This document shows positions 1 to 31,895 of a stretch of DNA of 64,000 bases, piece by piece; positions within the stretch are counted from its first letter, which is position 1, and each line of letters starts with the position of its first letter. Source of the DNA: Octopus sinensis. Its lineage: Eukaryota. The notes beneath the pieces are model-generated. The model did not search any database. It was not told the DNA's origin and saw only the letters and a program-made list of their open reading frames with translations. The stretch spans positions 47,616,001 to 47,680,000 of the forward strand of contig NC_043010.1 in the NCBI RefSeq assembly GCF_006345805.1, written 5' to 3'. The position numbers and the translations under genes are program-made.

Positions 1-85
1 GACGGCTTGATAACAAATAACAAAAATGTCGATGAAAATGGTTTTGAGTTTGTTGATGGCGATGAAATTATACCTCTTAACACGA
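1..85 (+). CDS. Laminin alpha-like gene, partial upstream exon (5' end outside window)
   Basis: Open frame DGLITNNKNVDENGFEFVDGDEIIPLNT ending at strong donor A|GTAAGT (86); phase 1 matches the acceptor at 4730 (A+AT = Asn). The peptide itself is not diagnostic. Confidence 0.55.
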
Positions 86-1890: not shown

Positions 1891-3517
1891 TATTGTTGTT
1901 CTCTGTTTGTGTTTATTTATATATTTGTTCTGATTGAGTGGTCAACAAACACAAATCAGTCATTAGTTTCAATTGCTTTATTATTATAAAGCCATGACTT
2001 TCCAATCAGCTCAGAGTTATCTCATTTAGGAAGGCATAATGAGCTGAAAATGCTTCTAGGGTCAAAGAAATAGTATCAATGCACTGAAAATGGTGTATTT
2101 GCATCTTTATCATAAGTGAGAATTTTTTTCCATGATAAACTACAATGAAATTACCTTTAGATGTTAAATCAGATCACAAAAATATTTGAACTAACCTGAA
2201 GTTTGTAGCATATTCTTGTATACTATTTCTATATACCATTGTGTTTGTAAGATATATTTGTACTTCACAGAGAGACTGCTGGAAGCTTACATGGATGAGA
2301 CCTCTATCAAGAGTAAAAAGGTGCAGAAACGTTGCTATAATGTCCAGCAAGACATTCAAGGTATATAAAATTTTGTTTCTTTTAATCATGGTGAAGATGT
2401 GACAACTTTTTAGTGTTGGTGTACAGGAAAAACATCTAGTACACTCTGAAAAGTGGTTGGTAATAGGAAGGGCATGCAGCCAAAGAAGCCAGGCTAAAAT
2501 GAAATGTGAGCAAAAGAAAAGTTCACAAATTCATTTGAGTATGCAGTACACCTTGGATACCTGCTGGTTCCTACAAGGACAACCTAGCCAATCTATGCCA
2601 GCATGGAAAGTGGATATAAAACATTGTGTGTACACACATATGCACACACATGTCGGTATAGTGGATTAGGTAAACTGTCTCAGAGAAAGAGAAAACCCAA
2701 TTTGAAAAAAAAAGCTATTTTATTGTGGGAATTATAAAGTTTACTGGCTCACAAGGACATATAAAGACGTATGTATACATATACACACCCGTGCACACAT
2801 GCACGCTCACAGACGCACACACACACATGCACACATATACACACACATTATACTCAGTGTAATGTACACTTGCTGTCATGAAGCTGACAAATATTTATAA
2901 AATACCTCCCTTGAAATGTCTTTCATCACAACAATCAAGCGTCGAAGCAGTTTTGTGCCAACTTCAGCAATACTCACATGATTTATCAAAATACTTAGGA
3001 ACATAAGCTCAATATTGTTTAAAATCAAAACTAAATATTTTTTAAAGCATATAAAACAGGTTTTGAACATAAAATGTTTTTTTTATGCTTATAAACATAA
3101 AATATGCTTTTATATACATATATGAGATAGTATCAAAAAGTTCCTGGACTAGTTAATTCTCTTTTTAATAAACTCAGGAATTTCTTTCAAAATTCTTCTA
3201 AGTGAACTTAGGATTTACTTATAGGACTAGGAATACAATTGCAGATCTGTCTATGTGTTCAAACATACATACATTATATATATATAATATATATATATGA
3301 CACTCAGCTGTAGAAATGAGTTGCGACGTCACAGGTGCCAAGCTGTATTGGCCCCTTTGCCTTTCCCTTGGATAACACTGGTGGCGTGGAGAGGGGAGGC
3401 TGGTATGCATGGGCGACTGCTGGTCTTCCATAAACAACCTTGCCCAGACTTGTGACTAGGAGGGTAACTTTCTAGGTGCAATCCCATGGTCATTCATGAC
3501 CGAAGGGGGTCTTTACC

Positions 3518-4729: not shown

Positions 4730-6445
4730 ATTTGAAACCTAAGTTGGCTCAAGTATCCTCGGAACTATCCAGAACTGAAAAGTTAGCCAATAGTACCACT
4801 TTTCTCCAAACCCATATTTTTGAATTCCTGTCCAACAGAACCAAATATATAGCTGAACTGAAAGAAACCACTGCTGAGCTTGAACTTATTCTGAATAAAA
4901 TTGAGACCTTGAATAATTTGGCAGAAAAAGTTCTTGCAGATGAGGACAATTTAAGAAAGCTCCTGGAAAAGAGGAAGAAAGAAAAAGAGAAGCGAATGAA
5001 AAAAGACGAAAAGAAGGCGAAGAATATGACTGGGAAAAAGAAGAAACCAAAGGGAAAGAAAAATGATAAACAGCGAGACAGATCTGAGGCATCAGGTGGG
5101 AAGCGTAAATCAAAGGTAAACACAACTGAAGAGGATGAGGATGAGTATGATGAGGATGGTGATGATGATGGTGGTGTAGATGTGGTACCTCCCATCAGAA
5201 ATAAAAAGAGAAAAAAGGAAAGAGATGAAATTAAAACAGAATCGGAAAGTGATGTGAGTCTTGGAGATGGGAAGAATTTAGGTAGTAAAGGAAACAGGAA
5301 GAAAGCTGATAAACATTCTGGCAGAAACGGGAATTCAGTGATTGTAAATAGACAAGATAAAAAGGTCAATGGACAAAGAAAGAGAGGTAAAAGTGATGTA
5401 AGCGAGAAGGAAGATGAGATTGAAGGAGAGAATAGAAAAGGGAAGAAAAGGAAGAAAGAAAGTAAAGGGAAAAGTGATGTAAAGAAAAAAGTTGAGGTGG
5501 AGGAAAAGAATGAAAAGGTGAAAAAAAAGAAACCACATGAAAAAGATGAAAAGGAAAATGACAAGATTGGTGGCAGTAAGGATAACAAGGAAGAAAATTG
5601 GTTGGATGTTTGGGAAGATTTGGTAAACTTTGAAAATATGGTCAGAAAGAACGAAAGCCTAAAATTGGTAAGTGAAGAAACAAGTAGCAAAAAATCCAAT
5701 AAAGCTGAACTTGAAAGAAAAACAACAAAAGATGAAAATAATGACAGGGAAGAAGTTTTGGTACTTAAAAAAGATGATTGGAGCAATAAGAAGAAGAATG
5801 GTAATGAAAAAAATGAAGGTAAAGATACTAAAAGCAAGAAAAGGAAAAGCAAGAGAAGGAAGGACATGAACAAGACAGAAAGTAAGGAGAAGGGTGGCAG
5901 TTCTAACACCAAGAAAGAAAATTGGTTAGATTTGTGGGAAAATTTGATAGAGTCTCAAGAATTGTTGAAGAAAGGTGGAAGTGAAGATTTAAATAGAAAT
6001 GAAGAAAGTCAATTTCAAAATGAGCAAAATTTGGCTGAGAGAAAAGATGGATATTATGAAAAGCAGCAAGAAAAAGAAGGAGGCGAGGAAATCAAAGATT
6101 TTGAAAAGGAGAATAGCAAGAATGTTGGTAACATAGTAAATATAAAGAAGCAGAAACATTATAAAATACTTACAAAAGAAGATCAAGAGTCGAGAAAGAA
6201 TAAATTAAAATTGAAAATTAAAAAACTACAAAGATATAGAAGAGATTTGCGAAACATTGACAAAGACAGGAAATCCTTTAATAGAAAGAGAGATGCCAGG
6301 CGGAGAAGACGGATGAGAAAGAAGAGAAGAAAAAATCCACGTAGAAGGGATAGAACACATGCAAGATTGCAGTCAGATAAAGCAGAAGATGAAGATGCTG
6401 TCGTAAAATTTGTCACAAAATTAAATAAGCAGATTGAAATTGATG
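4730..6445 (+). CDS. Laminin alpha-like gene, giant exon: coiled-coil segment followed by ~500 aa K/E/R/D-rich low-complexity insert
   Basis: Poly-T tract + TAG acceptor at 4729; uninterrupted 573-codon frame; heptad-like start (LAQVSSELSRTEKL...ELELILNKIETLNNLAEKVL); donor G|GTAATT at 6446, phase 1 matches exon 9623. Confidence 0.8.
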
Positions 6446-8664: not shown

Positions 8665-9622
8665 GTGGTGTTAGTAGTAGTAGTAGTAGTAGTAGTAGTA
8701 ATTATAATAATAATAGTAATAATAATAATAATCCTTTCCACTGAAATTTCTGGGGAGGGGGCCAGTCAATTAGATCGACCCAAGTATACAAGTCGTACTT
8801 ATTTTATCAACCCTGAAAAGATGAAAGGCAAAGTCGACCTCAGAGGAACTCAGAATGTAAAGACAGGTGAAATACTGCTAAGCATTTCATCCAGTGTGCT
8901 AACAATTCTGCCAGCTCGCTGCCTCTTCTACAAAACCATATTCTTGAATTCCTGTCCAACAGAACCAAATACATGGATGAACTGAAAGAAACCATAATAA
9001 TAGTTTCAAATTTTGGTACAAGGCTGGCAATTTCAGGGGTGGCAATAGATTGATTACATCAATTACGGTGCTCAGCCGGTACTTATTTCATCAACCCCCA
9101 AAGTATGAAAGGCAAAATCAACCTCAGGGTAATTTGAACTCAGAACATAAAGACATGAAATGCCACTAAGTATTTTGTCTGGTGTGCTAACAATTCAGCC
9201 AGCTGACTGCCTTGAACATAATGATTTCAAATTTTGGTACAAGGCCAAAAATTTCAGGTATGACATAAGTCGATTACATTGACCCCCGATGCTCAACAGG
9301 TACTTATTTTATTGACCTCAAACTGCTAAGTTACAGGGATGTGCACACACCAACACCAGTTCTCAATTGGTAGTGAGGGACAAACACAGACACAAAGACA
9401 TACACACACAACATCGTATACAACAGGTTTCTTTCAGTTTCTATCTACTATCCATTCATAAGGCTTTGATCAGCCCAAGAATATAGTAGAAGGCAAAGGT
9501 TCCACATTGGGACTGAACCCCGAATTATGTAGTTGGGAAGCAAGCTTCTTATCACACAGCCATGCCTGCACCTATTATGAATATGTATGTGTAATTTTTT
9601 ATTATTTTTTTTTATTTTGCAG

Positions 9623-9786
9623 TTACTAAAAGCAAGGAAAATATTGTTATTATGAACAAAACCTTGCAGGAACTTCCGAAAGATTTACACCAGTCAGTTA
9701 TTAGTAATGTGGAACAGCTGCGAATGAATATCTCCCAGATTCAATACAAAATTCACTTGGCACGGACATTGTTGTCTGCAATGAAG
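9623..9786 (+). CDS. Laminin alpha-like exon, end of coiled coil (domain II-like)
   Basis: TTTTGCAG acceptor; TKSKENIVIMNKTLQELPKDLHQSVISNVEQLRMNISQIQYKIHLARTLLSAMK resembles the laminin alpha domain II end (NISxLKxxIxxARxxxxxIK); donor AAG|GTAC. Confidence 0.85.
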
Positions 9787-10879: not shown

Positions 10880-11026
10880 ATCCCTGTGAAATTCACAGGC
10901 AAAGATTATCTAAAAGTACCATTACATCCTGGTTATGATTCTAGAAAAATCCAGTCAGATATGGATGTTTGTGTTAAACCAAAACTGAAGAGTGGCGCCA
11001 TTCTTGCAGTAAACATCAATAATTCT
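10880..11026 (+). CDS. Laminin alpha-like exon, start of LG1
   Basis: TTTGCAG acceptor; IPVKFTGKDYLKVPLHPGYDSRKIQSDMDVCVKPKLKSGAILAVNINNS; donor GTAAGT; phase 0/0. Confidence 0.88.
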
Positions 11027-11304
11027 GTAAGTTCTTTTTACTCTCTTACTCTTTAACTGAACAGTGGGATTGCTGGTACACTGCTTTCAAGGGTTTTAGT
11101 CAGTTTCACAAATCTTTATAGCTAACCTGGTTTCCATTTTATTGATCCATATTTAACAAACTGTGAAGTTCAGTATTCAGCTATGGAATTACATCCTTAC
11201 TTGGCTGGAAATATCACAAAGTATTCACACTGGTAAATGTAAACACATACACACACAAACATACTCACGTATGTCCGTACGTACATACGTACATACATAC
11301 ATAC

Positions 11305-11337
<33 letters not shown>

Positions 11338-11870
11338 TATACATACACACACACACACACAGTGCCAGTGGCATGTGTAAAAAGATCCGAGTGAGGTCGT
11401 TGCCAGTACCACCTGACTGGCCCCTGTGCCAGTGGCACGTAAAAGCATCCACTACACTCTCGGAGTGGTTGGCATTAGGAAGGGCATCTAGCTGTAGAAA
11501 CTCTGCCAGATCAAGATTGGAGCCTGGTGCAGCCATCTGGTTTACCAGACCTCAGTCAAATCATCCAACCCATGCTACCATGGAAAGCGGACGTTAAACT
11601 ATGATACACACACACATATATATATATATGCTTGTTTGTGACTAAAGAGTCTTTGACTATTGTTTCTATCAATGCTGGTGCTGCCCTGCACTCTTAGTCA
11701 AGTTTAGTGAAGATGAATTTTTTTCCTTTCTGGTTTTAAATTGCATCTAGCCAGCTTAATCATTTTATAACATTCACGTTACCATTCTGCTAAATCAGTC
11801 ATTGATTCCTATGGTAAATTCTATAAATACTGACATGCGAAATTCAGTTTCACCATCAGCAATGGAGTAG

Positions 11871-11920
11871 CATCACTGATGATCTTTGATTTCATGCGAA
11901 ATTGGCATGCCAATCTGATG
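11871..11920 (+). ncRNA. Type I hammerhead ribozyme motif
   Basis: cauca-CUGAUGA-...-GAAA-uuggcaugccaa-UC-ugaug: perfect stem I and palindromic stem III; stem II is degraded. Confidence 0.65.
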
Positions 11921-13334
11921 TCCTCATTTGCTATGAGGAGGTTGTCTCCCTTGTCAGTACATAGAATTGTGCTTGTTTGTGGCTAAAGAGCCTTTGACTC
12001 TTATTTCTAGCAATGCTGGTGCTGTCCTGCACCCTTAGTCACTTTTAGTGGTGATGAATTTTTTCCTTTTTGGTTTAAATTCCATCTAGCCAACTTAATC
12101 ATTTTATATATATATATAGGGAGAGAATTCATGAAAAAAACAAAAGTCGAAGACAGGTGGTGTAAAAAACAAACAGATGTATTAGGATAACGTTCGGGAA
12201 TTGAAAAAGTTTTTAACGTTTCGAGCCTATGCTCTTCCACAGAAAGGAACACAGACAGAAACAAGGAGAGAAAAAAATGTGTGTTTTGCAAGATTCTTGA
12301 TGTGAAAATGTGTGTTGAAACATGTTGTTATAATAAAGATCATTAATTGATGTCCATGTTTCATGCTCACATAAGTTAGATCTTTTGACAAGATGTGATA
12401 GGTCTAAGGACTGCATTGTATTCCAATGTCTGTTTTGGCATGACTTCTATAACTGGACACCCTTCCTAATACCAACCACTTTATGTATTCTGAATGCTGT
12501 TTTCAGTGCCAGTGGCACTAATGAGGTCGCATGTAGCTCACTACCTCACTTAGTTCAACTGGAACTAGCAAAAAGCATCCAGTATACACACACACATATA
12601 TATCACAGTTTCAATTTACCCAATTTCACTCAAATCATTCACACCTTAAGCTGTTATAGAAGACACTTGAGCATAGTGCTACATAGTGGGGTCAGAGTGA
12701 TCAGAACTAGAACCAAACTCCTTCACCACACATCCATGCCTTGCTTTCTTTCCTAAGCCCTTCACTCCATATGGAATACAGGTCATTGAAGGCATTTCTC
12801 TATTGTTCTCAAATCTGGACTGTCTTTTCTACTTCTCTACAGTTGGATCCCTGTTTTTTCAACTCTCCTTCAGTATCTTACCTTCAACAATTTTTAGGGC
12901 ATCTTCCCTTGTGGGTAGCAGGTCAGGGCCTGATGTGTCATATTTCCCTGAGGGAAGGTCTTCTTCTCATGGGTTTTGTTGGTTTAAAATTGTCATTGAT
13001 ACTTCTGTAATTTTACATTTTTCTCGGTAGGGATGTTGACCCTATGCAAACCAATTATTACCACTAGGAAGAGGTGGTCCATATTAGTTTGGTCTTCATC
13101 CTTTCATCTGTCTGGCATGGGAGGCCCTACCAAGACCTTGCACTCTATTGGCATATCTTTCTGGATCATTGAAGCATAAAAACCATGACACTACAACATG
13201 GACTGGTCCTTGCGGTGGACACAACCATACCTGTACCCATCTTTAATTAGTTTTTCATTTTCTAACTTGTTTTTATCTATTTTCCTTGTTAGTGTTTGTG
13301 GGATAGGTTTGGATAGATTTGGGTATTTGTACAT

Positions 13335-13865
13335 TGGGTGGAATTCTGGTTTAAGCACCCCATATAAACCCTCATAACTTTTTTATTTTTTTGGCATTTT
13401 CAGAAATTTTTTTACGAATTTGTGTTCTACACACAGGAATTCATACAATTATGCAAAAAACATTTTTGGATGATTTAAGGACAATTTAGATGTTATTTCT
13501 AGCACATCTCATGACCACCTAATACCTTCCTTGTTTCTTTGTCATTTTGACATGTATTGATGTTTTTTTATATTTTTCTCCCCATAAACACATTTAATAG
13601 AATGATGTTGCACCTAAGAGCAGTCAATTGCTGGGATTTAAACAAAATATTTGGCCTGTCTGTATTTTAAACACTGATTAAAAAAAAATTTGAAAATGAG
13701 TGGAACTTTTAGGATTTATGGGATGTGGGGTGGACAGTTAAAAAAAATCATAATTTGAATTCCTGTGCATAGAACACAAATTTGGAAACATTTTCTGAAA
13801 GTTCCAAAAAAATATAAGCATTATGAGGAGTTATATGGGGTGCTTAAAGTAGGATTTTGTCATAC
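13335..13865. mobile_element. MITE with ~110-bp imperfect TIRs
   Basis: TTTAAGCACCCCATATAA...CAGGAATTCA is mirrored by TGAATTCCTG...TTATATGGGGTGCTTAAA. Confidence 0.65.
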
Positions 13866-13957
13866 ATTGTTGACGGAATTGTGTTTTGTATTATCCTTCC
13901 TCTTATTATTCAGCCAACCTGTTACTAGTTAAGAATCTGTGTAGGATATATTGTTAA

Positions 13958-14350
13958 CTAGCAGTGTTGCCCGGCGTTGCTTGGGTTTGTTTCGACCCTT
14001 TAGAATTGGAATTTTTGAAAAGTAAAAATTTTGCATTATGTAGCTTGTTATTCTCTTTAAGTGAACATTTTTCTGGTTGAAATACACCGAAAAGTGGCGA
14101 CACAGCAGTAAAAAATCGTAATAAATTAGGCATTTTCATAGAAAAAAAAAGCACCGTTTTCATGTAAATAATTGTTAACATGGTCCGATTTGAATTTTTT
14201 CTTCTACGGAAGGAAGAGCAAGCCTTCTTCTATCATACTCTCAATTTTGGTCAACTTGTGCCGCAGGGTCTCAGGGGAAATAGTGTTAGTTGAAGGTTAC
14301 CAAACCTGCCATACACAGACAACTTCAGCTTTATATAGAGAGAGATAGAG
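13958..14350 (-). mobile_element. Non-autonomous Helitron (second family)
   Basis: Reverse complement of 62909-63299; CTAG end with subterminal hairpin. Confidence 0.75.
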
Positions 14351-14802
14351 ATTTAAAAAAAATATACTAAAGAAAGCAGAGTTACCTACCTTGTCTCAGA
14401 GACGTACACCATAGTTTTATGATTTACTGTTTAGTCATCCACCCAGCATACTAATCTTGTCACAATGATCATATCTATAAGATATGCATTGGTGTCTACA
14501 AGACATTTATTGTGTTTATCAGATATTCATCCCAATTGCCCTTATAAGACATTTAATTGTCTATAAAAAAATAATTCTGTCTATAAGCCTTGGATTCAGT
14601 CCCGTCACACTGTGGCATCTTGGGCAAATGTCTTCTACTATATATGCACAGGTGTGGCTGTCTGATATGAAATTTGCTTCTCACCCACATGGTTTCAGGT
14701 TCAGTATGTACCCTGGGCAAACGTCTTCTAATATGACCCTGGGCCAACCAATTCCTTATGTATGGATTTGGTAGTTGGAAACTGAAAGAAGCCCATTGTG
14801 TG

Positions 14803-14876
<74 letters not shown>

Positions 14877-14878
14877 TA

Positions 14879-15262
14879 TCTCTCTCTATATAAACGGCAG
14901 TTTGTCTGTGCGTTTTCTGTGTGTCTGTTTTCTCGTACCCTCACTCTGACCACGGCTTTCAACCGATTCTGATGAAACTTGACACACACATAGCCCAATG
15001 TCATAATTCAAAACTAACGCAGCGAAAATTTTGAAAAGTTCCCCCAGTTCTGAAAAAAATCGATAAATTCGACATGGGGTCGAGAATCAGAAACCCAAAC
15101 CACAGACCGTCTAGGGGACGCAACTCCACCTTTTTTAACTCTCAAAAAAAATTTACCATCATTTTTTTTCCATTTTTTTGCTATTTTTTGGCTATAACTC
15201 TCTAAAAATGCTTTATAGTTATTTCCCTTACAAACCTGAGCAACGCCGGGCGATACTGCTAG
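14879..15262 (+). mobile_element. Non-autonomous Helitron
   Basis: 5' TC...TATATAAA start; 3' hairpin CCTGAGCAACGCCGGG then CTAG-T; no TSD. Confidence 0.75.
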
Positions 15263-15517
15263 TATATATATATACACACACACACACACATATATGTATA
15301 CATATACATATATTTTATTCTTTTATTTGTGTCAGTCATTTGACTGCGGCCATGCTGGAGCACCGCCTTTTAGTCAAAGAAATGGCCCCCAGGACTTATT
15401 CTTTGTAAGCCTGGTACTTATTCTATCGATCTCTTTTGTTGAACCGCTAACTTACAGGGATGTAAACACACCAAGATCAGTTGTCAAGCAGTGGTGGGGG
15501 AACAAAGAAACACATAA

Positions 15518-15548
<31 letters not shown>

Positions 15549-17254
15549 AACGGTAATTATTTCTACGCCAGCTGCTATGTTGTTGTTGTTTTGTCTCATT
15601 TGGTCTAAAGTCGTATGACAACCACCATTATATATATTTTGTTTATTCATTACTGTTTTCAATTTCGTTTTCGTCTCTTGTATTCACATCCGTCTGTGCG
15701 TTCACATTCCTGTCTTCTACCAAGAAATCTAATGCTTACAGCTTAGTTTTTTTTCTTGGGGCTGGCCGAGTTGGAGCAAATATCAGAATTGAACAGCCGA
15801 AATTTGCTATGATGATTCGGTGTCTGACTGAAGATTGAAGGCTTCGAATGATTTGTCTGTGTTCCGTGTTCGTCCCTTCCTGTATTTCACGTTCATTATA
15901 TATAAAAACATTCATTCTTATATATATATATATATATAAAATTAGAAAATGCAGATAACATAGATTATCCGGTACATCGATTGGACCACATTTAAAGCTT
16001 GTTTATTGATAACCTATGTTTTTCCCCATTTTCTTCTATAGCCTCAGGCTGACCAAAGCCTTGTGAGTAGAGATGGTAGGCAGAAACTGAGAAAAGCCTA
16101 TATATATGTCTGTGTGTGTGTGTGTGCCTTTATATCTGTTTGTCTCCACACTACTGCTTGATAACTGATGTTGGTGTGTTCACATCCCCATATCTTAGCA
16201 ATTCAACAAGAGAAACTGATAGAATGAGTACCAGGCTTAACAAAAAAAATAAGTACTGAGGTCGATTAATTCAACTAAAAATTCTTCAAGGCGATGCCTC
16301 AACATGGTCTCAGTCTTATGATTGAAACAAAAATTTTTTTTTATACATGTGTGTGTGTTTGTATATGTATGTATGCACACACATACATACACACACACAC
16401 ACACATGTATATGCTGTGTGTGTGTGTGTGTGTGTGTGTGTATGGATGTACGTATATATTTAACACACACACTCTCTCCTTTCTTTAATACTTAATTCTC
16501 TTTTCATACTTTCTCCTGAATATCTATATTGCACCTGATTACTAACTATATATAAACACTTCATCTAAATGTACAATTTACGTGGCTCCACACAGGCACT
16601 TTTATGTGTGTATATATGTATGTATCAATGAATGTATACATATATGTATATGTGTGTGTCTGTATGAATGTCTGTATTGTATGTATGTATGTATGTGTAT
16701 TTGTCCCCACCACCACTTCATGACCAGTGTTAGTATTAGTAATCTCCCCATTACTTAGCAGTTCAGTAAAAGAGACTGATATAAGTACCAGGTTTTAAAA
16801 TATAAGTTCTGACATCAATTTGTTCAACTAAACCCATCGAGGTTGTGCCTCAGCATGACTACAGTAATGACAGAAACAAGTAAAAGATGTGTGTGTGTGT
16901 ATGTGTGTGTCTATGTTTGTATTTGTCCCTCACTACCACTTGATCACTGGTGTTGGTTTGTTTATGTGTCTGTAACTTACCATTCGGCGAAAGAAGAAAC
17001 CAACAGAACAAGTATCAGGCCTCAATTTGATTTTGACTAAATCCTTCAAGATGGTGCCCCAGCATGGCCGCAGCCCAATGACTGAAACAAGTAAAAGATG
17101 GAAAAAATATTAAAAAAATTTAACTAAGACATTGCAAACTAGTTTTGTAGTGTGTCCTCATTTCCCTCATTATCACCAACCTCATTTTTGCTCTGATTAT
17201 TACACTTATCATAATCCTTAATATTGTAAGCATGAAATTTCCCACGCTTTTTCT

Positions 17255-17365
<111 letters not shown>

Positions 17366-17392
17366 ACTACTACTACTACTACTACTACTACT

Positions 17393-17426
<34 letters not shown>

Positions 17427-17954
17427 GTTGTTGTTGTTATTGTCTCAGAGTAACAATAAATTTTCAGTAAAATGGAATCTTATAATTTGGTTTTGTCATC
17501 AGTCACGATAACTTCATGTTGCTAATATACTTACTGTGATCCGAAATGGAATATTGCTCCTACATTTGTGAGGGTGATCCTTGGAATTTGTATGTGCACT
17601 CACACACACACACACACACACACACTCTCTCTCTTTCTCTCTCTCTTACACACGCACACCCTTTCTTTCTCTTAAACACACACACACTCGCACACACTCT
17701 CTCTCTCTCATACACACACACAGACTCCATCACATATACACACACTTTCACACATACACACACACACACACTCTCACATATACACACTCTTTCTCTCTTC
17801 TCTCACATACACTCACATACACACTTTCTCTCACATACACTCTCTCTCTTTCTCTTTCTTCTCTCTTTCTCTTTCTTCTCTCTCTCTCTGACACACATGC
17901 ACACACACACACACACACACTCAGCTAGAGAAGGCACATTTTTCTCCACAAAAA

Positions 17955-18165
17955 GGTGGCAAGCTGACAGAAATGTTAGCACGCCAGGTGAAATGCTTAG
18001 TGATATTTTGTCTGTCTTTACATTCTGAGTTCAAATTCCGAGGTCAGCTTTGCCTTTCATCCTTTCGGAGTCAATAAATTAAGTACCAGTTGCATACTGG
18101 GGTTGATCTAATTGACTGGCCTCCTCCCCAAAAATTTTGGGCCTTGTACCTAGAGTAGAAAAGAT
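17955..18165 (+). mobile_element. Nin-domain-like SINE
   Basis: GCCTTTCATCCTTTCGGAGTCAATAAATTAAGTACCAG; copies at 7378, 8745 (-), 9003 (-), 27043 and 38630 (-). Confidence 0.65.
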
Positions 18166-18473
18166 TCTTCCCCATAAACATATAAGACCAGCATTGAATT
18201 TTGTTGGTGCTAGCGATGATGATGAGGATGAGAATGATGTGTTTATCTACTTATTTACTTAATTAGTCATAATTAATTCCTATTAGATAATTAATTAAAA
18301 ATTATTGTAATTGATTCATGTAATTCATACACGATAATAAAATTAATGCATTCAGAATTATTAGTAAACTTTTGAAAAACCTTTCTCTGTGTCATTTGTT
18401 TTTCTTTCTCATCCGCGAACTTTTAATAAACCAATGCATGCTTTCTCTGTGTCTTTTTTTTTTATTTCTTCAG

Positions 18474-18607
18474 GTGAGCTATATTCTTGGCCTGAAGAAC
18501 AGTGCTGTGTTTTTGTCAGTGTATGATATGGATGGAAAAGAACTTAAAGTAGTTGAATCTAAAAGTAAAACAAAACCAGAGGTTTGGTACAAGTTTGGAA
18601 TCCAAAG
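18474..18607 (+). CDS. Laminin alpha-like exon, LG1
   Basis: Polypyrimidine + CAG; VSYILGLKNSAVFLSVYDMDGKELKVVESKSKTKPEVWYKFGIQR (LamG W-x-x-hydrophobic-x-hydrophobic-x-R); donor AG|GTAAC, phase 2. Confidence 0.85.
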
Positions 18608-18920
18608 GTAACATTTTCTAATAATTGCTTATATCATATACTTTCTAAGACTATCTCAGACCCCCTTCGGTCACGACACAGATCATGAGATTGCACCTAA
18701 AAAGTTACCCTCCAAGGCACAAGTCCAAGCAAAGTTGTTTATGGAAGACCAGCAGTCGCCCATGCAAAACGGGCTCCCCTCTCCACGCCACCAGTGTTAT
18801 CCAAGGGAAAGGCAACGGCCGATACAGCTTCCATAAACCTTACAATTGTGAATCAAATACCCTAACCACTAAACTATGTGTCAGAATGGGAAAGAGAAAA
18901 ATGACAAAAAGAAGCAGACA

Positions 18921-19099
18921 GGCGCAGGAGTGGCTGTGTGGTAAGTAGCTTGTTACCAACCACATGGTTTCGGGTTCAGTCCACTGCGTGGCACCTTGGG
19001 CAAGTGTCTTCTACATATAGCCTCGGGCCCCGACCAAAGCCTGTGTGAGTAAATTTGGTAGACGGAAACTGAAAGAAGCCCGTTGTTATATGTATATAT

Positions 19100-19150
<51 letters not shown>

Positions 19151-19365
19151 GGTGTGTGTGTGTGTGTGTGTGTTTGTCCCCCTAGCATTGCTTGACAACT
19201 GATGCTGGTGTGTTTATGTCCCCGTCACTTAGCAGTTCGGCAAAGGAGACCGATAGAATAAGTACTCGGCTTACAAAGAATAAGTCCCAGGGTTGAGTTG
19301 CTCGATTAAAGGCGGTGCTCCAGCATGGCCACAGTCAAATGACTGAAACAAGTAAAAGAGAGAGA
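18921..19365 (+). mobile_element. Full-length copy of the main tRNA-derived SINE
   Basis: A/B-box-like head TGGCTGTGTGG...GGTTCAGTCC; same body as 6481. Other + copies near 22830, 27186, 50713, 53750, 63550. Confidence 0.85.
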
Positions 19366-19696
19366 GACATGAAATAAGGCCTCCACTATCAATGACTACT
19401 CAGCTTGGTTGCCCTAAACACTTCCTATAAATAAAGGAGCATTCTATTCAGAAGGAAAGTTCTCATGCTATTAACACTACAGTCAGTAACTTGCTGAATT
19501 CTTATAGATAATGTGAGAAATGTCTAACACACTCACATAGACATTTGCATTCATGCACACACACACTCAGATATACATGGTTTACACACATACTTAAGGA
19601 TGCTCACTCATGTAAACAGAAACACACACACACACAAGGGTGAGTCAGAAAATATTGCAATTTTTATTTGCTTTACTTTCTGGCTCATCTTCATTT

Positions 19697-19733
<37 letters not shown>

Positions 19734-19739
19734 ATTAAT

Positions 19740-20425
19740 CAATATAGGGTGGTGAAAAAAATTTTGTAGAATTCTTTTGCCACCCGGGCCTAGTGGGAAA
19801 AAATTAAATAGTCATAGACCATTTTTAAGTTCAACATCAACAATCAAGGAACGGCCATAATAGGCCATTCACCACTAGAAATAACAGCCAAAGCTTCAAC
19901 CGCAAATAAAGATCAATTCCGTAAACAGGAGAAAATTTAAAAAAACATTTACCCTGTAATTTCTTGTACGATGCACCGTTTCGTCTGCTGTTAATGGTAA
20001 ACTAACCTGATTAAATTAAATCAAGCCAATCTTCCATAGGCCCTCAGATTCTTCAGCAAGAAATAGCCAAGTCGGAACAGATATTTTCACGAGGCATTTC
20101 CGACCTTGCCAAGGCAATATCTGACCTAAAATTTTCAAATCGTCGCACTCGCGCCAAATTTATCGGCAGCAAATAAATATAAGCCGTCGATTCCATTACG
20201 GAATTAACCAGAAAATTCATAATTAATCAATATAGGCTTAATTTAATCAGGTTAGTTTACCATTAAACAGCAGACGAAACGGTGCATCGTACAAGAAATT
20301 ACAGGGTAAATGTTTTTTTTAATTTTCTCCTGTTTACGGAATTGATCTTTATTTGCGGTTGAAGCTTTGGCTGTTATTTCTAGTGGGTGAATGGCCTATT
20401 ATGGCCGTTCCTTGATTGTTGATAT
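19740..20425. mobile_element. Penelope-like inverted pLTR structure
   Basis: 19840-20020 is the reverse complement of 20240-20420; contains a hammerhead motif; flanked by (TA)n. Confidence 0.65.
19963..20060 (-). ncRNA. Type I hammerhead ribozyme motif with long stem II insert
   Basis: Minus strand cuug-CUGAAGA-aucug...cagac-GAAA-cggugcaucg-UA-caag. Confidence 0.65.
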
Positions 20426-20481
20426 ATATATATATATATATATAATATATATATATATCAAATATATTTGTGTGTATGTTG

Positions 20482-20525
<44 letters not shown>

Positions 20526-22217
20526 CATATATATATATATATGTTGATGTTAGGAAGGCCATCCAGCTATAGAAATCATGCCAAAGCTGATACTGTCCAA
20601 CTATCCGATTCGTGCCACCATGGAAAGTGGACATTAAATGATGATGATGGTGGTGGCAGTGTCAGCAGCAGCAGCAGTGACGAAGATGATGATGATAATG
20701 ATGTATTATTATCCTCATCATCATCATCATCATCATCATTTAGCGTCCGTTTTCCATGCTCATATATTATTAATTTTTACAAGGAAAATGGTTGACATCA
20801 ACTTTGAAGTTTCGGATTGCGCACCATCATCACACTGTTATCATTATAGACTAGCCGCTAGCAAACCGAAACTTTGAAGTTACTGCCAGAAAATGAACTT
20901 TACTAAAAGGAATCAATTAATCCTCTAGTTTCATGTGAAATTGTTTTTATGTATAACTTCTCATAAAACAAGCATTTATCAATCCATCCAACCAACCAAC
21001 CAAGCAAAGGAGGGTATCTATGGACAACTGCTTTGAAACCTCCAGCTTCTATATACAGACTATGAATTCATATTCATATCAAATTGGAGCACTATGTTTT
21101 GTTAGTAAATGCTTAAAGGATAATCTGGATAAACTGGGATTTTCAGGAAGAGAAATTGACCGGCCGATCTGTACATTACAAGTCCAATCTGTGAGTGGAA
21201 CAGTAAAAATATGCAAGGCTTTTCTCAAGTTCCAAATGTGAATTTGTCTGTGTTAACTACATCTCAAAGATGGATCCTTCTGTCTTTGTTGGAGACCGAC
21301 TCCCTCTTTAGTGGAAGATTTATAATAATTAAAAAATAGAATAGATATACATGCCTACATGTGTGTGTGTGTAATGTCATCATCATCATCATCATCATCA
21401 CTTAACATCTATTTTTTGTGCTGGCATGGTATCGGACAGCTTGACAAGAACTGGCAAAGCCAGGGGCTACACCCATTTCCATAGTTTGTTTTGGCTTGGT
21501 CTCTACAGCTGGATGCCCTTCCTAATGCTAACCACTCCACAGAGTGTACTGGATACATTTTGCATGGCACCATCACTAGTGTTTTTTGTGTGGGACCAGC
21601 CCTCACACCAATGCTTTTCATGTGGCATCTTGGTTTCAAGATATCAACTGCGTTGCGGTGAGTGGGTCTTCTTGAATACACCAATACACCACATATCTTG
21701 GTCCTGTTGTCTCCTTCATAAAGCTCAGCATTTTGAGATCAACCTCCATTACTTTATCTCATGTCTCCCTGGGTCTCCCTCTTCCGCAACTTCCCTCCAC
21801 TGTAAGTGATTGGCACTTCTTTATGCAACTGTCCTCATCTATCCACGCTTAAAACTGACCCTACATTGGTTATGACAATGAGTGTCCCTGTTCATCCAAT
21901 CAATGGAGCAGCCTGCTCATGGAATTAATGTGCAAGTGGCGGAGCACTTCACAGACATGCCTAAAACTTAATATAATTTTCAGGGAGATTCAGCATGATA
22001 CGGGCCACTGTTGGGTATTGAAATCATGACCTTACAATCTTGAACTGAATACTGTAACCGCTAAGCCACATGCCTTCACACATACATCTAAGACTCAGTC
22101 ATTCATATATTTGTCAATAGACTGGGTAAATGTATATATTTATAAATGTATAAAGTATTATTGATTCATTTCAGCCTATCTTCTAATTTGGTTTCGCTTT
22201 GGCTGTGAGATAACTTG

Positions 22218-22295
<78 letters not shown>

Positions 22296-22420
22296 CCTTT
22301 CTCTCCCCCTTTCTCTCTCTCTCTCCCTTTCTCTCTCTCTTTCTCTCTCTTCCTCCCTCCCCCCTCTCTCTCACATACACACACACACTTATACATGTGT
22401 ATACTTCTTAATTTTTCTAG

Positions 22421-22571
22421 AATTGGTCGAAACTTCAGCGTGACAATCAGCCCCATTTCAGCTGCAGCTCAAACAAATAAAGAAGTTGTTAAAATATTTC
22501 TCCCAAAAATAAATGCTGAGTACACAGCTCCTTCAGTTGCTTATGTTGGTGGTTATCCTGAGGAATTATGG
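22421..22571 (+). CDS. Laminin alpha-like exon, LG1
   Basis: TTTTCTAG acceptor; (R)IGRNFSVTIS...SVAYVGGYPEELW contains the LamG YVGGxP motif; donor GTAAGA. Confidence 0.9.
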
Positions 22572-23770
22572 GTAAGATTATATATTTTTCTATAGCAGGT
22601 CACGTGTACTTTAGATATTGTTACTGTGTCTATGCAAGGGACACTATCAGAAGATATATAGTGATGTGTTAATAGCATACTTCTACACACTTTCATATGT
22701 TATATCTTCTAAGCTATTTATAAACATTTTTAGTTTGTCACTTGGCAAGTGGTACATTGTGCAAGATAACAGAGCCTACAGTCCACAGTTGATTTAGCAC
22801 TTTATTATATTTAGCACTGTTATATAGGTACAGGTATGGATGTGTGGTAAGAGGCTTCCTTCCCAACTACATGGTCCTGGGTTCAGTTCCACTGCATGGT
22901 ACCTTGGGCAAGTGTCTTCTTCTATAGATCCAAGGTTGAACAAAGCCTTGTGAGTAGGTTTGGTAGGTGGAAACGGAAAGAAGCCAGTAGTCTCTGTGTA
23001 TGTGTGTGTGTGTGTGTGTGTGTGTTTGTCCCCCAATACCACTTGACAACTGGGGTTGGTGTGTTTACATCCCCTTAACTTAGCAGTTCAGCAAAAGAGA
23101 ACAATAGAATAAGTACCAGGCTTAACAAAAAATAAGTACTGGGGTAGAGTCATTTGATTAAAAATTCTTCAAGGCGGTACCCCAGCATGGCCACAGTCTA
23201 ATGATTGAAACAAGTAAAAAAAAAAAAATACAAGATTTCATTGGAGGTTTGCTTATGATACCTAACCAATGCCCTACCCCCCACCCACCCAAAAAAAAGC
23301 AAAGAAGTTACATTGCCTCCACAATTTTATATTTTCATATTCTTTAAAGGGTACATCTGATTATATAAAGTTAGCAAAATCGATTCCGTTTATTGCATAA
23401 GTGTATCTATCACACACACAGTTTATTTAAACAGAATTCTTTTTCATTGATATACTGTGTTATATTTGAATATATGCATGTGTGAGTACTTTACATACAT
23501 ATTAATCTATCTATATATATATGTGTGTATATGTATACACACCCACAAACACATACAAATGTATGCATAAATGTATTCTTAAATAAGAATGCTGTTGACA
23601 GTGATTTTGAAGTTTTGGCCAACTAAAGCCCTCGTCAGACTGGCCAAAACTTCAGCCACTGTCAACGACATTCTTGCAAAAGAATAATAAATTTGTACTC
23701 TAAAATAAGTATAGAGCAACCTCCAGATTAATGTAAAATTATTTTTATATAACTGAACATAAAAACAAAC

Positions 23771-23807
<37 letters not shown>

Positions 23808-23929
23808 TATATATATATGGGCTGGGAGCTTTCCTGAGCCAGCAGGGTGGCGTCATTGAAGGCTAAAACATTGCGAATGCATTGTGACCAGCGATGTGTA
23901 ACAACATCTGATGGTCTGGTCGTAAAAAA

Positions 23930-25130
23930 AATATATATATATATATATATAGTATATACATATATATGTATATATTATACACATATATATGTATATATTA
24001 TATACATATATGTATAGATTATATACATATATATGTATATACTATATACACTATATGTATATATTATATACATATATATGTATATATTACATACATATAT
24101 ATTATATACATGATGATGATGATGATGATATATATATATATATTATATTATATATATATATATATATTGTATATATATATATATATATTGTATATATATA
24201 TATATATTTTATACATATATTTTTATATTATATATACATATATTATATATATATATATTTTATACATATATTTTTATATTATATATACATATATATATAT
24301 GTATATATATATATATTATACATATATTTTTATATTATATATCATATATATATATGTATATTATATATATTTTATACATATATTTTTATATTATATATAA
24401 TATATATATATGTATATATATTATATATATATATACTTTATTAATATATATATATATATATATCTATATAATATATATTATATCATATATATATATCATA
24501 TATATATATCTCTATATATATTATTATATAATTTATATATATATATTATATATATAATAATATATATTTCGTTTTGGGATTTGGTTTGCAAGATTCTTTA
24601 TATGAGTTCATGTGTTGAAGCATATTCCGTTGTGTCTGGGGAGAGTCATTTTCTTTTTGTGCCTTATAATTTAACACACTCACCAGTAAAATTTCCACTT
24701 ATTTCTTATTTTTATTTTCCTAAAATTTTTGTTGCGTCTTGCAACCTTTTCAATAGTCTTGACTCTGTATATTATTTACACTGTGTTCCTTTTTGTTTGT
24801 TTGTGCACATGTTTGTGGGTCAGTGTGTGTGTGTGTGTACCTATGCATGTATGTATGTTTGTATGTGTGTATGTATGTATGGATGTGTATGTATGTATGG
24901 ATGTGTATGTATGTATATATGTGTTTGTATGCATATGTATATATGTATGTATGTGTGCATCTGTATGTATGTATTCTGCATATTCATGTGCTTGTATGTC
25001 TGTGTTTGTGTATTTTCTATGTACGAGTGTGTGTGAGCATTTGTTTGTATATGTATGCACCTCTGTCTCCTTGTGTGTACATGTCTGTGTGTGTGTGTGT
25101 GTGTCTGTGTCTGTGTGTTTTGCAACTATG
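23930..25130. repeat. Long degenerate (TA)n and (TATG/TG)n low-complexity block
   Basis: Directly visible; interrupted by a Penelope-like fragment at 24565-24760. Confidence 0.9.
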
Positions 25131-25518
25131 TACCATGATTGTATGTATGGATGTGCATCTCTATATGTGTGGACCCATGTCTCCATAGTGTCCTTGTGTG
25201 GAATAAAGTGTGTGTGTATATATGGTCATGTGTTTCAGTTTCCATTTGCGTATGTGTGCTTGTCTATTCATATAACCTATGTACCTATCCATCTGTATGT
25301 TGAGCTGTTTATTTTGATATCCATATGCTTACATACAAAAAAAAATACATGTGCATACACACATACTCACACACACATACATACATCTATCTGCATAACA
25401 GTCCACTAACTATTCTACTCTACCTGTGTAAACTGTGGGTATGGAGGTATGATATCTACTATGTATATTTCCTATTTAGTATTGGTGGGGTTTTATTTAT
25501 AAGGTCGTACTCCCATAT

Positions 25519-26049
25519 TTGTCTGAGTGTTGGGTCTTTTGGGTGCTTGGATACGATGCAGATGTAGAGGCCACAGCCCATGGAGAACTAACCCGCAGAT
25601 TTAGAAAAGCTCTGAAGGAGACCAAACTCAACATTAAGATTGTTGAAAAGCCTGGGAACTCCATCAGATCACAACTGTATAGGACGTACCCATTTGAGAA
25701 AACCATATGCACCAATGATAACTGCATGGTATATAGGATTAGCCCTGGCATTGACTGTAGAACTCGAAATGTAATTTACAGCATAAGATGCATAGAAGGT
25801 GCTTGTAAAGACATGAACATGACATACATAGGGGAGACATCTAGGAGCATTGCGGAACAGATAAATGATAATCTAAGACAATATGACGACAAAAAACAGT
25901 CCTCGATACTCTACCAATATGCCAAAGACCATCATGGAGGCAAGTTGGGTCAACTTGACATCCGCATCTTATCCAAGTACCCAAAAGACCCAACACTCAG
26001 ACAAATGCGGGAGTACGACCTTATAAATGAACCCCCCCACCAATACTAA
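25519..26049 (+). mobile_element. Penelope-like element remnant, GIY-YIG endonuclease region
   Basis: CRTRNVIYSIRC...YIGETSRSIAEQINDNL: VIY...YIG motif with upstream Cys cluster typical of Penelope-like element endonucleases. Confidence 0.85.
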
Positions 26050-26332
26050 ATAGGAAATATATAAAGTCAAAGTAATTTAATGAAAATTAATTTGAAAATG
26101 CATCATTTAAAACCAAAATTAAAAATTCCACAAGAACTTTCTTGACAACCTAATATATATATATATATAAATGTATGCATGTTTCCCTTGTCTAGGCAAC
26201 TTATGTATGTATGTTTGTGTGTGTGGGTGTTGTATGTGTGACTGTGTATGTATGTGTATGTAAGAATGTGTGATTCATTCAACTATAGAAAACTCTTTTC
26301 CATACATATTTGATATTCTTTATCAATAACAG

Positions 26333-26451
26333 AAAAACAAATTAAAACAGCTGGAAGGTTGTGTGGGGTCTCTTGATGTTGATGGACATGCTATGTCTCT
26401 GATGCAGCCTTTTTCAGATGGTTCTCAGCCTACACCTTGTACACATGGATG
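26333..26451 (+). CDS. Laminin alpha-like exon, end of LG1
   Basis: KNKLKQLEGCVGSLDVDGHAMSLMQPFSDGSQPTPCTHG contains the LamG GC...C motif; donor TG|GTAAGC, phase 2. Not in the supplied ORF track in this frame. Confidence 0.85.
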
Positions 26452-26791
26452 GTAAGCAGTTTACTTATTTTATTTTATTTTATTTTTGGATTGGTTTCTA
26501 TGGCTGGATCTCCTTCCTAATGCTAGCCACTCCAGAGAGCGTACTGGGTGTTTTTATTTTTTGTTTTTTGTTTTTTTTATGTGGCACCAGAACCCACTCT
26601 AATGCTTTTAAGAAAAGGGTTATATACAGAATTAAATCTGCAATGTTCTTCTGATCTCTCACCAGTTTTATAAAAATCATAAAAGTATTGGGAGATTATT
26701 TTAAATATCATGTAGTTATTATTTTATTCTTAATTAGATACATAATAATTAACAATTCTAAATCCATTTTGTGTTGTTTCTTGTTCCACAG

Positions 26792-26936
26792 TGGTGACAA
26801 TTCTTCAATGGTCTTCGAAGGTAATGGTTTTGCAGAATTTCACATTGATGATATCCTGAAGACTGGTTTAACATCAGTTCAGCTTACCTTCAAGACATAT
26901 CAAACAGATGCTTTGCTTTTATTTCTGAAGAATACA
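26792..26936 (+). CDS. Laminin alpha-like exon, start of LG2
   Basis: GDNSSMVFEGNGFAEF...VQLTFKTYQTDALLLFLKNT, classic LamG FxGxGF and FKT..DALLL motifs; CAG and GTAAGT sites. Confidence 0.92.
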
Positions 26937-27341
26937 GTAAGTGCTTTTTGATCATTTTTTTTTTTTTAAGGAAGTTTTTCTTTACTTCTGTTTTTGCTAA
27001 AAGCAAACAAGTTATACAGAGTAATAGACCTAAGAACATTCAGGCAGCAAGCTGACAGAATTGTTAGCTTGCTGGGCAAAATAAAATGCTTAACAGTATT
27101 TCGTCCATCTTTATGTTCTGGGTTCAAATTCCGTAAAGATCACCTTTGCCTTTCATCTTTCCTGGAGTTGATAAAATAAGTACCAGGAGTGGCTGTGTGG
27201 TAAGTAGCCTGCTAACCAACTACATGGTTCCAGGTTCAGTCCCACTGCGTGGCACCTTGGGCAAGTGTCTTCTACTCTAGCCTCAGGCCAACCAAAGCCT
27301 TGTGAGTGGATTTGGTAGATGGAAACTGAAGGAATCCCATC

Positions 27342-27386
<45 letters not shown>

Positions 27387-27911
27387 CATGTATATGTGTG
27401 TGTATATGTTTGTGTGTCTGTGTCCTCCAACATCGCTTGACATTGATGCTGGTGTGTTTACGTCCCCGTAACTCAGTGAGACTGATGGAATAAGTACTGG
27501 GCTTACAAAGAATAAGTCCTGGGGTCAATTTGTTCAACTAAAGGCAATGCTCCAGCATGGCCTCAGTCAAAATGACTGAAACGAATAATAGAATTGAACA
27601 CTGGGGTCAATGTAATAGACTTACTTCCCTAAAATAGTGGACCTTGTGCCAAAATTTGAAACCAATATACAGAAGAATATTAGTCTATATAATTTGTTTG
27701 TATATTTATTTTGTTTATGCTACCTGTCTGTGTATCTACATACCTACATATCTACCTACTTAATTATGTACCTCTCTTCCTAGCTACTGTACAGTTACAT
27801 AGATCCCCAAATGCCCACTTATTGCGAAACACATCTACTTATAGACAAAACTATTTTTTAATCTAGCTAGTCATCTCTCTCCCTCTTTCTCTCTCTCTCT
27901 CTCTTTTTCTC

Positions 27912-27955
<44 letters not shown>

Positions 27956-28409
27956 TTCCACAAACACATATATACTTACACATATTAATATATGTTTGTA
28001 AGAATCTCTCGTATATGACTGAGAAAGATATCCACCATGTACGAAATGAACTTAATTTTAAATAATTACAAGTGAGCCAAAGAATATAACTTAAACCAGC
28101 TAATGTAATGAATTTAGATCATTCAGGTTGATGATCTGAAATTTACCTCTAAGTTGGAGAAAGAACACAAAATCCTCACAGCAATTATTAGTTACGCTAC
28201 AAGAAAAAGGGGAGATAATTTCAAGGAATTTTAAATTAATTTTGCAAAAAATTGAATTTTCATGTTAACGAAAAAAATCTTATCTGCTTTTGTTGGTAAC
28301 GTTGACAGCTGCATACACGTTTCCATCTTAGATCTTTGTCAGCTCAGTATTGTTGTTTTCAAAGCCATCAGGTAATTCATGATTAATTGAAAACAATGCA
28401 AACAAACAA

Positions 28410-28990
28410 GCATTACATTATTTACATTATTTACATTCGACAGATATTTGTCCTCATCTTGTTTGTTGTAAACACAACGTTTCGGCTGATATACCCTCCA
28501 GCCTTCTTCAGGTGTCTTGGAGAAATTTCGAACCTGGGTTCTCATTCCTAAGGTATTTTTCGATATTGTTATTATTATTAGTGTTCAGATCACTGCTTGG
28601 AATCGAACTCGGAATTTTGGGGTTGGTAGCCCGTGCTCTTAACCACTATGCCATATGCCCATGGGCAATTATGGAGTGAATTTTAGGGCTTATAAATCTA
28701 ATATTTTTCTACCCTTCCTTAATACCAGTTCCCATATGCTGGTCATATCTGCACTCGGTCTGCTTAGGAGGTTAGTGGTTAAGAGCATGGGCAACTAACT
28801 CCAAGATTCCGAGTTCGATTCCAAGCAGTGACCTGAACACTAAGAAGAAGAAGAACAACAACAACAATAATAATAATAACATCGAAAAATACCTTTGGAA
28901 TGAGAACCCAGGTCTGCTTGGGAGGTTAGTGGTTAAGAGCACGGGCTATTAACTCTAAGATTCCGAGTTCGATTCCAAGCAGTGACCTGG
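28410..28990. mobile_element. Penelope-like pLTR cluster with inverted and tandem tRNA-like segments
   Basis: Hammerhead motif; GGTTAAGAGCACGGGCTA...GAGTTCGATTCC segment occurs once inverted and twice direct; similar copy at 61770-61915. Confidence 0.65.
28472..28515 (-). ncRNA. Minimal Penelope-type hammerhead ribozyme motif
   Basis: Minus strand acac-CUGAAGA-a-ggcug...cagcc-GAAA-cg-UU-gugu; decayed copies near 30945 (+) and 61830-61870 (-). Confidence 0.75.
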
Positions 28991-29258
28991 TGGTGGTGGT
29001 AAAGCAACAATACGGGTAAGGGTGATTAGGTGATGGTCTAGGGTTTAGGAGCGGGAGACCCCAGACCTTGGGGAAAAAAAAAAACTTGGTCGTCTTGTAG
29101 TCGAGGGCTCTTCGTTGACACCCAACACCACTGGGAGGTGGCCCTAGAGGTCACTGGAAATGGAGGTCTCCAGGTCCAAATTCTTGAACAGCTGCTGCTG
29201 TTGCTGACCATCAAATGATACAAGTTATTAAAATACGTTTGTCATTGTCTTTTTCTAG

Positions 29259-29384
29259 AATTTTCAACTAATTGTCACATTGGAATCAGGCAATATCCTT
29301 ATCCAGTATGAATTGGAAGATACACAGACAGCTAAGTTAAGTGGACCTAAAGAACTCTCCAATGGAATGTTGCACAAAATTCAG
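29259..29384 (+). CDS. Laminin alpha-like exon, LG2
   Basis: NFQLIVTLESGNILIQYELEDTQTAKLSGPKELSNGMLHKIQ (LamG LxxG and NGxxHxI); TTTTCTAG and CAG|GTAGGT; phase 0/0. Confidence 0.88.
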
Positions 29385-31306: not shown

Positions 31307-31353
<47 letters not shown>

Positions 31354-31752: not shown

Positions 31753-31895
31753 GTAAGTCAAAAACAAAATATCACAGAATATATATTTAAAAACAAATTT
31801 TATAAATCTGCTTGCATGACATCTTGGACCAATGTTTTCTGCTATTGCCTCAAGTCTTGTGATTGAATTTTGGTTGAATAGAAGCTCTGTGGAAA

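Follow-up and report, generated by a model that had tools for sequence, protein, structure and literature searches.

The locus and its largest exon

The window analysed here is a stretch of 64,000 nucleotides from Octopus sinensis (NCBI RefSeq assembly GCF_006345805.1, contig NC_043010.1, positions 47,616,001 to 47,680,000 of the forward strand), and positions are counted from its first letter unless a contig is named. It holds the 3' part of a gene with 25 coding exons that extends across about 132 kb of contig C14. The locus is annotated merely as uncharacterised or laminin alpha-2-like. The features of the gene in the window are the following.

1..85, + strand: 3' end of exon 10 (220 nt, most of it before the window starts), where acidic loop 2 ends
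2271..2360, + strand: exon 11, 90 nt, phase 1-1, coiled-coil helix
4730..6445, + strand: exon 12, 1716 nt, phase 1-1, residues 742-1313 of XP_029645281 (P0009)
8923..8994, + strand: partial copy of exon 12 positions 70-141, 72 nt, 90% identical, within the next intron
9623..9786, + strand: exon 13, 164 nt, phase 1-0, the final coiled-coil exon ahead of LG1
10880..44794, + strand: exons 14-25, LG1-LG3; the stop ends at 44794, with no LG4-5 downstream in the window

Exon 12 is bounded by an AG at 4728-4729 behind a T-rich tract and by a GT at 6446-6447. One of its six frames is free of stops and the remaining five contain 7-89, while the best of three frames in 5000 base shuffles always had at least 27. 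An earlier note on this DNA had singled out a stop-free exon of 1716 nt among exons of 70-192 nt, and the boundaries, the frame, and the shuffles agree. The size range is right for the remaining complete exons in the window (n=14) but not for the gene as a whole, as upstream exons measure 298, 398, 376, and 220 nt. Exon 11 was overlooked in that note, which placed a junction at 85/4730; the exon that truly precedes exon 12 is 2271-2360, which puts the junction at 2360/4730.

The product of exon 12 matches residues 743-1313 of the O. sinensis RefSeq model XP_029645281 (P0009, 1907 aa) exactly and is 98% and 82% identical to its counterparts in O. vulgaris and O. bimaculoides, respectively. The exon is single-copy in the genome, barring the 72-nt intronic fragment and low-complexity matches to its acidic run. 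The intronic copy of the exon start at 8923-8994 appears to be a remnant of local duplication. Intronic frames at 25480-26049, 35047-35391, 37103-38435, and 53049-53423 resemble decayed retroelement fragments.

Transcription of exon 12

Of 24 runs listed, none of them recorded as RNA, 19 (from 7 studies) contain at least half of the exon 12 words. Contigs were mapped to the stretch 4600-6600, with partner exons outside it, for four RNA-like runs from three studies that are presumed to be RNA. In all four, a single contig spans 4728-6445 without a gap and extends past both splice sites, and the intron flank at 4600-4666 has a depth of 0. No joint was found inside exon 12 in any of the four runs among contigs over 4600-6600, which drop rare variants. 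Two contigs extend exactly 1860 nt beyond 6445. This length equals 1784 coding nt, the 13 downstream exons up to the stop, plus 76 nt to a trinucleotide repeat, which lies 76 nt after the stop and is an expected contig break; the extensions thus give indirect support for the whole downstream exon chain. The exon is also part of both RefSeq isoforms and of the gene models for O. vulgaris and O. bimaculoides. Coverage across the exon and tests for internal donors had been named in the earlier note as checks; the coverage came out in its favor, and no internal joint appeared in these contigs. Exon 12 is confirmed to be real, and all four RNA-like runs carry it whole.

It is hardly credible, in consequence of these data, that the charged part of the exon is an annotation artefact or is mostly removed via an internal donor or exon skipping. 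Phase 1-1 would permit in-frame skipping, in-frame GT candidates follow positions 5095, 5818, and 5881, and rare variants would be lost from contigs; however, the whole exon lies in one contig in 4/4 runs, it is present in every model named above, and assembly-derived relatives have the charged stretch in frame with LG1-3. The one unexplained item on the side of splicing is an extra short contig at 5806-5872 in two of the four runs (X4 and X8), near the GT candidates after 5818 and 5881, which may stem from low-complexity cross-matching or from a minor splice variant.

Architecture of the host gene

Exon 1 provides a start and a hydrophobic, signal-like stretch that is spliced to the coiled-coil exon series, as judged by eye. 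The only Pfam domains in P0009 are LamG, in three LG stretches. No LN domain was detected by Pfam in P0009, and none of the 10 LN, 51 LE, or 4 L4 matches in the genome lies on contig C14; between aa 100 and 210 the protein has just 4 cysteines. No LG4-5 match occurs downstream of the stop at 44794 within the window, which bears out the claim in the earlier note that LG4-5 had been lost. Of the canonical alpha features tested, the domain I/II coiled coil is present, and LN, LE/L4, and five LG domains are not. Judged by its sequence, the gene product is a headless laminin alpha ending at LG3, not a canonical alpha.

For the C-terminal 600 aa, the best PDB match is 5MC9, the laminin-111 integrin-binding fragment (E 3e-21), which is also the best by fold. 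The fold model of the C-terminal part is mediocre (pTM 0.41) and its domain packing is uninterpretable. The non-loop helical segments, with ends set by eye, total ~544 aa, compared to 585-588 in two vertebrate alphas, and five of the seven show heptad periodicity at a level reached by no more than 5 of 300 shuffles. The upstream helices (aa 195-660) have no significant match to vertebrate alpha coiled coils (z 1.3-2.3). The helices that flank the exon 12 insert map to adjacent profile positions, 412-507 and 508-581, with weak scores (E 0.002 and 0.0006). A search of the ESM Atlas gave a lead of 0.75 to a LamG/Laminin_II cluster for aa 705-1420 and no usable match for aa 200-560. A genome search with Pfam Laminin_II returned nothing and was uninformative, since it missed the canonical alphas too.

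The loop in exon 12 is one of four charged loops in the protein. The others are encoded by exons 2, 9, and 10 (398, 376, and 220 nt) with net charges of +19, +20, and -14, so that a net basic charge is found in three of the four inflated exons (+19, +20, +50). The whole chain carries +95, versus -33 for frog alpha2. Loop 1 is basic and closes with an R-x-R-R motif at aa 608; loop 2 is acidic and contains a Ser-Gly site of the kind that carries glycosaminoglycan chains, placed between a pair of cysteines. These two loops, encoded just upstream of the window by exons 9-10 (C14:47612735-47616085), are 92-93% identical to their O. bimaculoides counterparts.

Origin of exon 12

The 23 introns from aa 232 onward were paired with IVS33-57 of human LAMA2, with two human mini-exons merged; nine of them are absent from the positions listed in the available part of PMC11221619. 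Phases agree for 14 of the 14 that are testable against this listing, for which the chance is 1.4e-6, and the gene therefore shares its exon-intron structure with the laminin alpha family as far as that source reaches. A two-codon offset of the intron before LG1 was considered as a diagnostic character and vanished after the human numbering was re-anchored.

The exon equivalent to exon 12 is 177 nt long, phase 1-1, in both canonical octopus alphas, and the coiled-coil regions of both contain no charged frame longer than 62 aa. A same-phase equivalent of this size, together with the lack of such a frame in the canonical alphas, indicates that exon 12 grew from within. By this comparison of sequences, it is to be read as an ancestral laminin-alpha exon inflated roughly tenfold, not as an inserted exon. 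The earlier note had known of no such insert in canonical laminin alphas, and neither canonical alpha of this genome has an exon of this type.

Descent of the gene

Five LN loci were found in the genome, including two alphas on C10 and C30. The others are on C6, C1, and C8, and we take them to be beta, gamma, and netrin, respectively, from domain context and sequence motifs. The two alphas (C10:28.54-28.76 Mb; C30:8.35-8.39 Mb with C8905) are full-length and have matching exon layouts; the second probably continues from C30 onto C8905. Their LN exons both favor alpha5 over alpha1 (92 vs 58 and 94 vs 50 bits), and the pair is apparently the result of an alpha3/5 duplication. An alpha2 LN query revealed no further LN locus in this assembly, which may be incomplete. 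Because both canonical octopus alphas are of the alpha3/5 type and no alpha1/2 head was found, the gene is probably a remodelled alpha1/2.

The LG2 region carries further information on descent. A phase-0 intron interrupts LG2 of this gene where LAMA2 IVS50 is placed in the available listing, and in both octopus alpha3/5 genes the LG2 region is a single exon of 109-111 aa without that intron. A ten-row LG2 tree, in a comparison that left out vertebrate alpha3/5 and other molluscs, places the gene on the alpha1/2 side with support of 90/89 and a very long branch (4.4). One intron, after aa 1642, fails to coincide with the octopus alpha3/5 position and was counted against alpha1/2 orthology. Taken together, descent from alpha1/2 is considered probable on sequence evidence.

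Two other ideas were set aside. The best PDB match, 5MC9, is not diagnostic of alpha1/2, since an octopus alpha3/5 LG2 exon likewise scores higher to 5MC9 (90 bits) than to alpha5 5XAU (18 bits). A separate alpha1/2 short-arm gene on C6 was also considered and rejected; no LG lies near that locus, and the LN, coiled-coil, and terminal exons there resemble those of laminin beta, which the locus presumably encodes, judging by its motifs.

Several observations on the other laminin loci can be added. The first LN exon of the probable beta gene (C6:118.70 Mb) lies 5.6 Mb from the rest (C6:113.04-113.12 Mb), which suggests an assembly mis-join or an enormous intron. Several short tandem matches to the C-terminal segment of LN (query 231-261) at C30:8368210-8369074 suggest that an exon fragment may be repeated in the second alpha3/5 gene. 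The beta and gamma terminal exons were located on C6 and C1, and the gamma tail has a Glu four residues from its end, resembling the integrin-binding Glu.

Composition and predicted structure of the insert

Exon 12 can be divided into the following parts.

4732..4968, + strand: heptad helix at the exon start (~79 aa), AlphaFold helix 2-100 with pLDDT 78-93
4969..6387, + strand: charged insert of 473 aa (exon residues 80-552), 54% K/R/D/E, net +50
5128..5169, + strand: acidic run, from the sequence
5554..5958, + strand: internal duplication, 81-nt copies at 5554-5634 and 5878-5958, 73% alike and 324 nt apart
6175..6354, + strand: strongly basic predicted helix (AlphaFold) and run (sequence)
6388..6445, + strand: coiled coil resumes (laminin domain II), from sequence and helix comparison

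The heptad helix has a hydrophobic period of 3.46 residues (1/300 shuffles). The insert that follows breaks the laminin-alpha coiled coil, as the earlier note had proposed, and does so ~70 residues ahead of LG1. The acidic and basic runs described in that note were both located, at 5128-5169 and 6283-6354. By exon arithmetic (1716 minus 177 nt), the insert is about 510 aa long. It is 17% hydrophobic, lacks cysteine, and has nine runs of four or more K/R. Its charge is blocky (kappa 0.24 vs 0.14+-0.02 when shuffled), and with a net charge of +50 the loop, which the note had called a polyampholyte, is not an even one. The final 55 aa alone account for +21. Each copy of the 81-nt duplication encodes a Trp-containing amphipathic motif.

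In single-sequence AlphaFold models of the exon 12 product, pLDDT is below 50 for 241 of 571 residues. A basic helix is predicted with confidence at exon aa 482-534 (pLDDT 88-93). Between exon aa 290 and 465, at the two duplicated Trp motifs, the predicted helices are short and of low confidence. The insert is thus predicted to be mostly non-helical. The description of ~500 disordered amino acids in the earlier note stands in that respect, but not for residues 482-534, and the charged part proper is 473 aa.

Octopus and cuttlefish-type relatives

The exon 12 frame is open in three Octopus species, and the four indels relative to O. bimaculoides are all in frame, an outcome that agrees with the frame conservation in cephalopods named as a check in the earlier note. 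The insert is 87% identical to that of O. bimaculoides, compared with 83-93% across the rest of the protein. In run X8, the insert differs by 10 non-synonymous to 3 synonymous changes, small numbers whose ratio is close to the neutral transition ratio of 1.9; residue-level selection on the insert is not visible. In the same run, 8 of 15 differences cluster in 86 nt of the basic helix (6254-6339).

A cuttlefish-type protein (P0004, assembled) is 40% identical over the C-terminal part, and its cluster is 94% identical to a Sepia pharaonis protein annotated LAMA1_2. It shows a weak Pfam Laminin_II match (E 7e-6) below the cut-off. The LG1-proximal helix is conserved like the LG domains, with 45% identity between octopus and cuttlefish-type proteins. 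Up to 551 charged residues precede the equivalent helix in P0004, a stretch known from the protein alone. P0004 is probably incomplete at its start and has a 30-aa helix at 101-131, which gives an insert of about 420 to more than 550 aa. The octopus and cuttlefish-type inserts have charged fractions of 0.54 and 0.58, net charges per residue of +0.106 and +0.113, and a kappa of 0.24 each. Their alignment score of 300 compares to 290+-17 for shuffles, and no sequence homology is found between them. The octopod and cuttlefish lineages diverged some 270-300 million years ago.

No orthologue outside cephalopods was retrieved by three word-based searches and one full scan, all of limited reach, and a comparison of the exon 12 product with 1.84 billion representatives yielded the O. 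bimaculoides protein only.

Proposed function and alternatives

According to the part of PMC11260871 available, LN domains form the polymer node, and polymerisation fails in alphas whose short arms are truncated. The same source gives LG4 as the site for heparan sulfate, sulfatides, and dystroglycan, and LG1-3 plus the coiled-coil end as the part to which integrins bind. With LN and LG4-5 absent and LG1-3 and the coiled-coil end kept, the octopus chain would have retained the integrin-facing module alone. We propose that the chain is secreted by way of its signal-like N-terminus and may join the single beta and gamma chains in an alpha-beta-gamma rod which, having no alpha LN, would be non-polymerising. 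About 70 residues above LG1, the cationic insert would loop out of the rod and could bind sulfated glycans or other polyanions electrostatically, substituting for the missing LG4-5. Selection would then act on the bulk charge of the insert and not on its sequence. Our confidence in this reading as a whole, a non-polymerising headless laminin whose looped-out cationic insert binds polyanions in place of LG4-5, is evenly balanced; glycosaminoglycan binding by the insert is plausible from its composition. The charged stretch at the same site in the cuttlefish-type orthologue, with near-equal charge statistics, appears to support conservation of bulk properties. A-rich slippage alone gives runs of K/E/N/R/D, and the cuttlefish likeness could in part be mutational.

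Slippage of this kind is also the basis of a different reading, which we consider rather unlikely: it would have expanded an exon where the coiled coil can loop out, leaving bloat that is tolerated or serves as a passive spacer, with selection on frame and solubility only. The near-neutral 10:3 ratio, the failure of the two inserts to align, and the local DNA turnover seen in the internal duplication and the intronic copy are what this reading would predict. It accounts less well for the fact that the two lineages agree in the site of the insert, its approximate size, its positive net charge, and the blockiness of that charge, for an identity to O. bimaculoides that falls within the range of the rest of the protein, and for the net basic charge of three of the four inflated exons. 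A further reading is that the protein left the laminin trimer and became a charged matrix protein, structural or coacervate-forming, that acts alone or as a homo-oligomer and adheres through its LG end. Extreme divergence (the LG2 branch of 4.4), the interruption of the rod by four loops with blocky charge, and the loss of sequence likeness in the upstream helices point this way; we consider it quite unlikely, as all coiled-coil exons are kept in order and phase, total helix length is near canonical, and conservation of the LG1-proximal helix equals that of the LG domains.

The earlier note had suggested that furin-type cleavage in the loop releases LG1-3. In its broader form, proprotein convertases would cut at the polybasic end, thereby releasing or activating the C-terminal helix and LG1-3. 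The four R-x-K/R-R motifs of the insert all fall in its last 55 aa and are kept in three Octopus species, the motif at aa 608 similarly closes loop 1, and a basic patch stands right ahead of helix resumption in the cuttlefish-type protein. However, the count is marginal (4 against a shuffle mean of 1.3, with a 99th percentile of 4), and the cuttlefish-type motifs lie at 134-139 and 434 of 551, off the junction. In a trimer, the beta and gamma chains would presumably retain the cut piece as well. The proposal is thus weak, and processing as the purpose of the loop is regarded as quite unlikely. The reading favored here remains that of a cationic loop on a non-polymerising laminin.

Comparison with known systems

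The alpha1/2 class, such as human LAMA1/LAMA2 and Drosophila wing blister, shares the coiled-coil and LG1-3 exon series with the octopus gene, with all 14 phases that the available source allows to be compared. The LAMA2 IVS50 intron and the best structural match, the alpha1 fragment 5MC9, are also shared. Unlike members of this class, the octopus gene is without LN, LE, L4, and LG4-5, and has four charged loops and a net charge of +95. The truncated alpha3A and alpha4 chains (laminins 3A32, 411, and 421) likewise have no alpha LN, are rod-like, and retain LG1-3, as described in the accessible part of PMC11260871. The octopus losses, however, are gene-encoded and arose independently, and the likeness would be functional only. 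Alpha3A and alpha4 derive from alpha3/5, their genes still encode LG4-5 along with a few LE domains, and we know of no long charged loop in them. The laminin beta knob (L-beta) is a short cysteine-containing loop in beta that leaves the trimeric rod and so sets a precedent for looping-out of a single chain; the octopus loop is in alpha, is about 470-510 aa long, and has an insert without cysteine. Pif-like/LamG3 shell and eggcase proteins are secreted proteins with an LG-type domain that occur in cephalopods (bioRxiv 10.1101/2021.07.10.451900, in the part available). They have chitin-binding domains, one LamG3, and no laminin coiled coil, and are unrelated to the octopus gene.

No paper describing the gene was found in the literature covered, which excludes subscription papers and supplements; supplements of cephalopod genome and single-cell studies may list it. 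Five accession or locus ids gave 0 literature matches.

Implications for the cephalopod basement membrane

Essentially all bilaterian genomes contain a pair of laminin alphas along with a single beta and a single gamma (PMC3308698), and the Drosophila alphas fall into the alpha1/2 and alpha3/5 classes (PMC4068974), as stated in the available parts of these papers. It is conceivable, at slightly less than even confidence, that coleoids rebuilt this basement-membrane toolkit: alpha1/2 would have lost its polymerising arm and LG4-5 and become a rod with giant cationic disordered loops under charge selection, anchoring matrix electrostatically, while the duplicated alpha3/5 would supply the polymer network. 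If alpha1/2 has indeed been dismantled in an animal that has a closed circulation, a large brain, and strong muscles, this would be a real exception. It would also provide a natural test of which laminin functions are replaceable, such as polymerisation and dystroglycan binding through LG4-5. The insert would be an extracellular disordered region that keeps its charge statistics while its sequence turns over, and, if the trimer forms as proposed, a loop of roughly 500 residues may be tolerated within a trimeric coiled coil.
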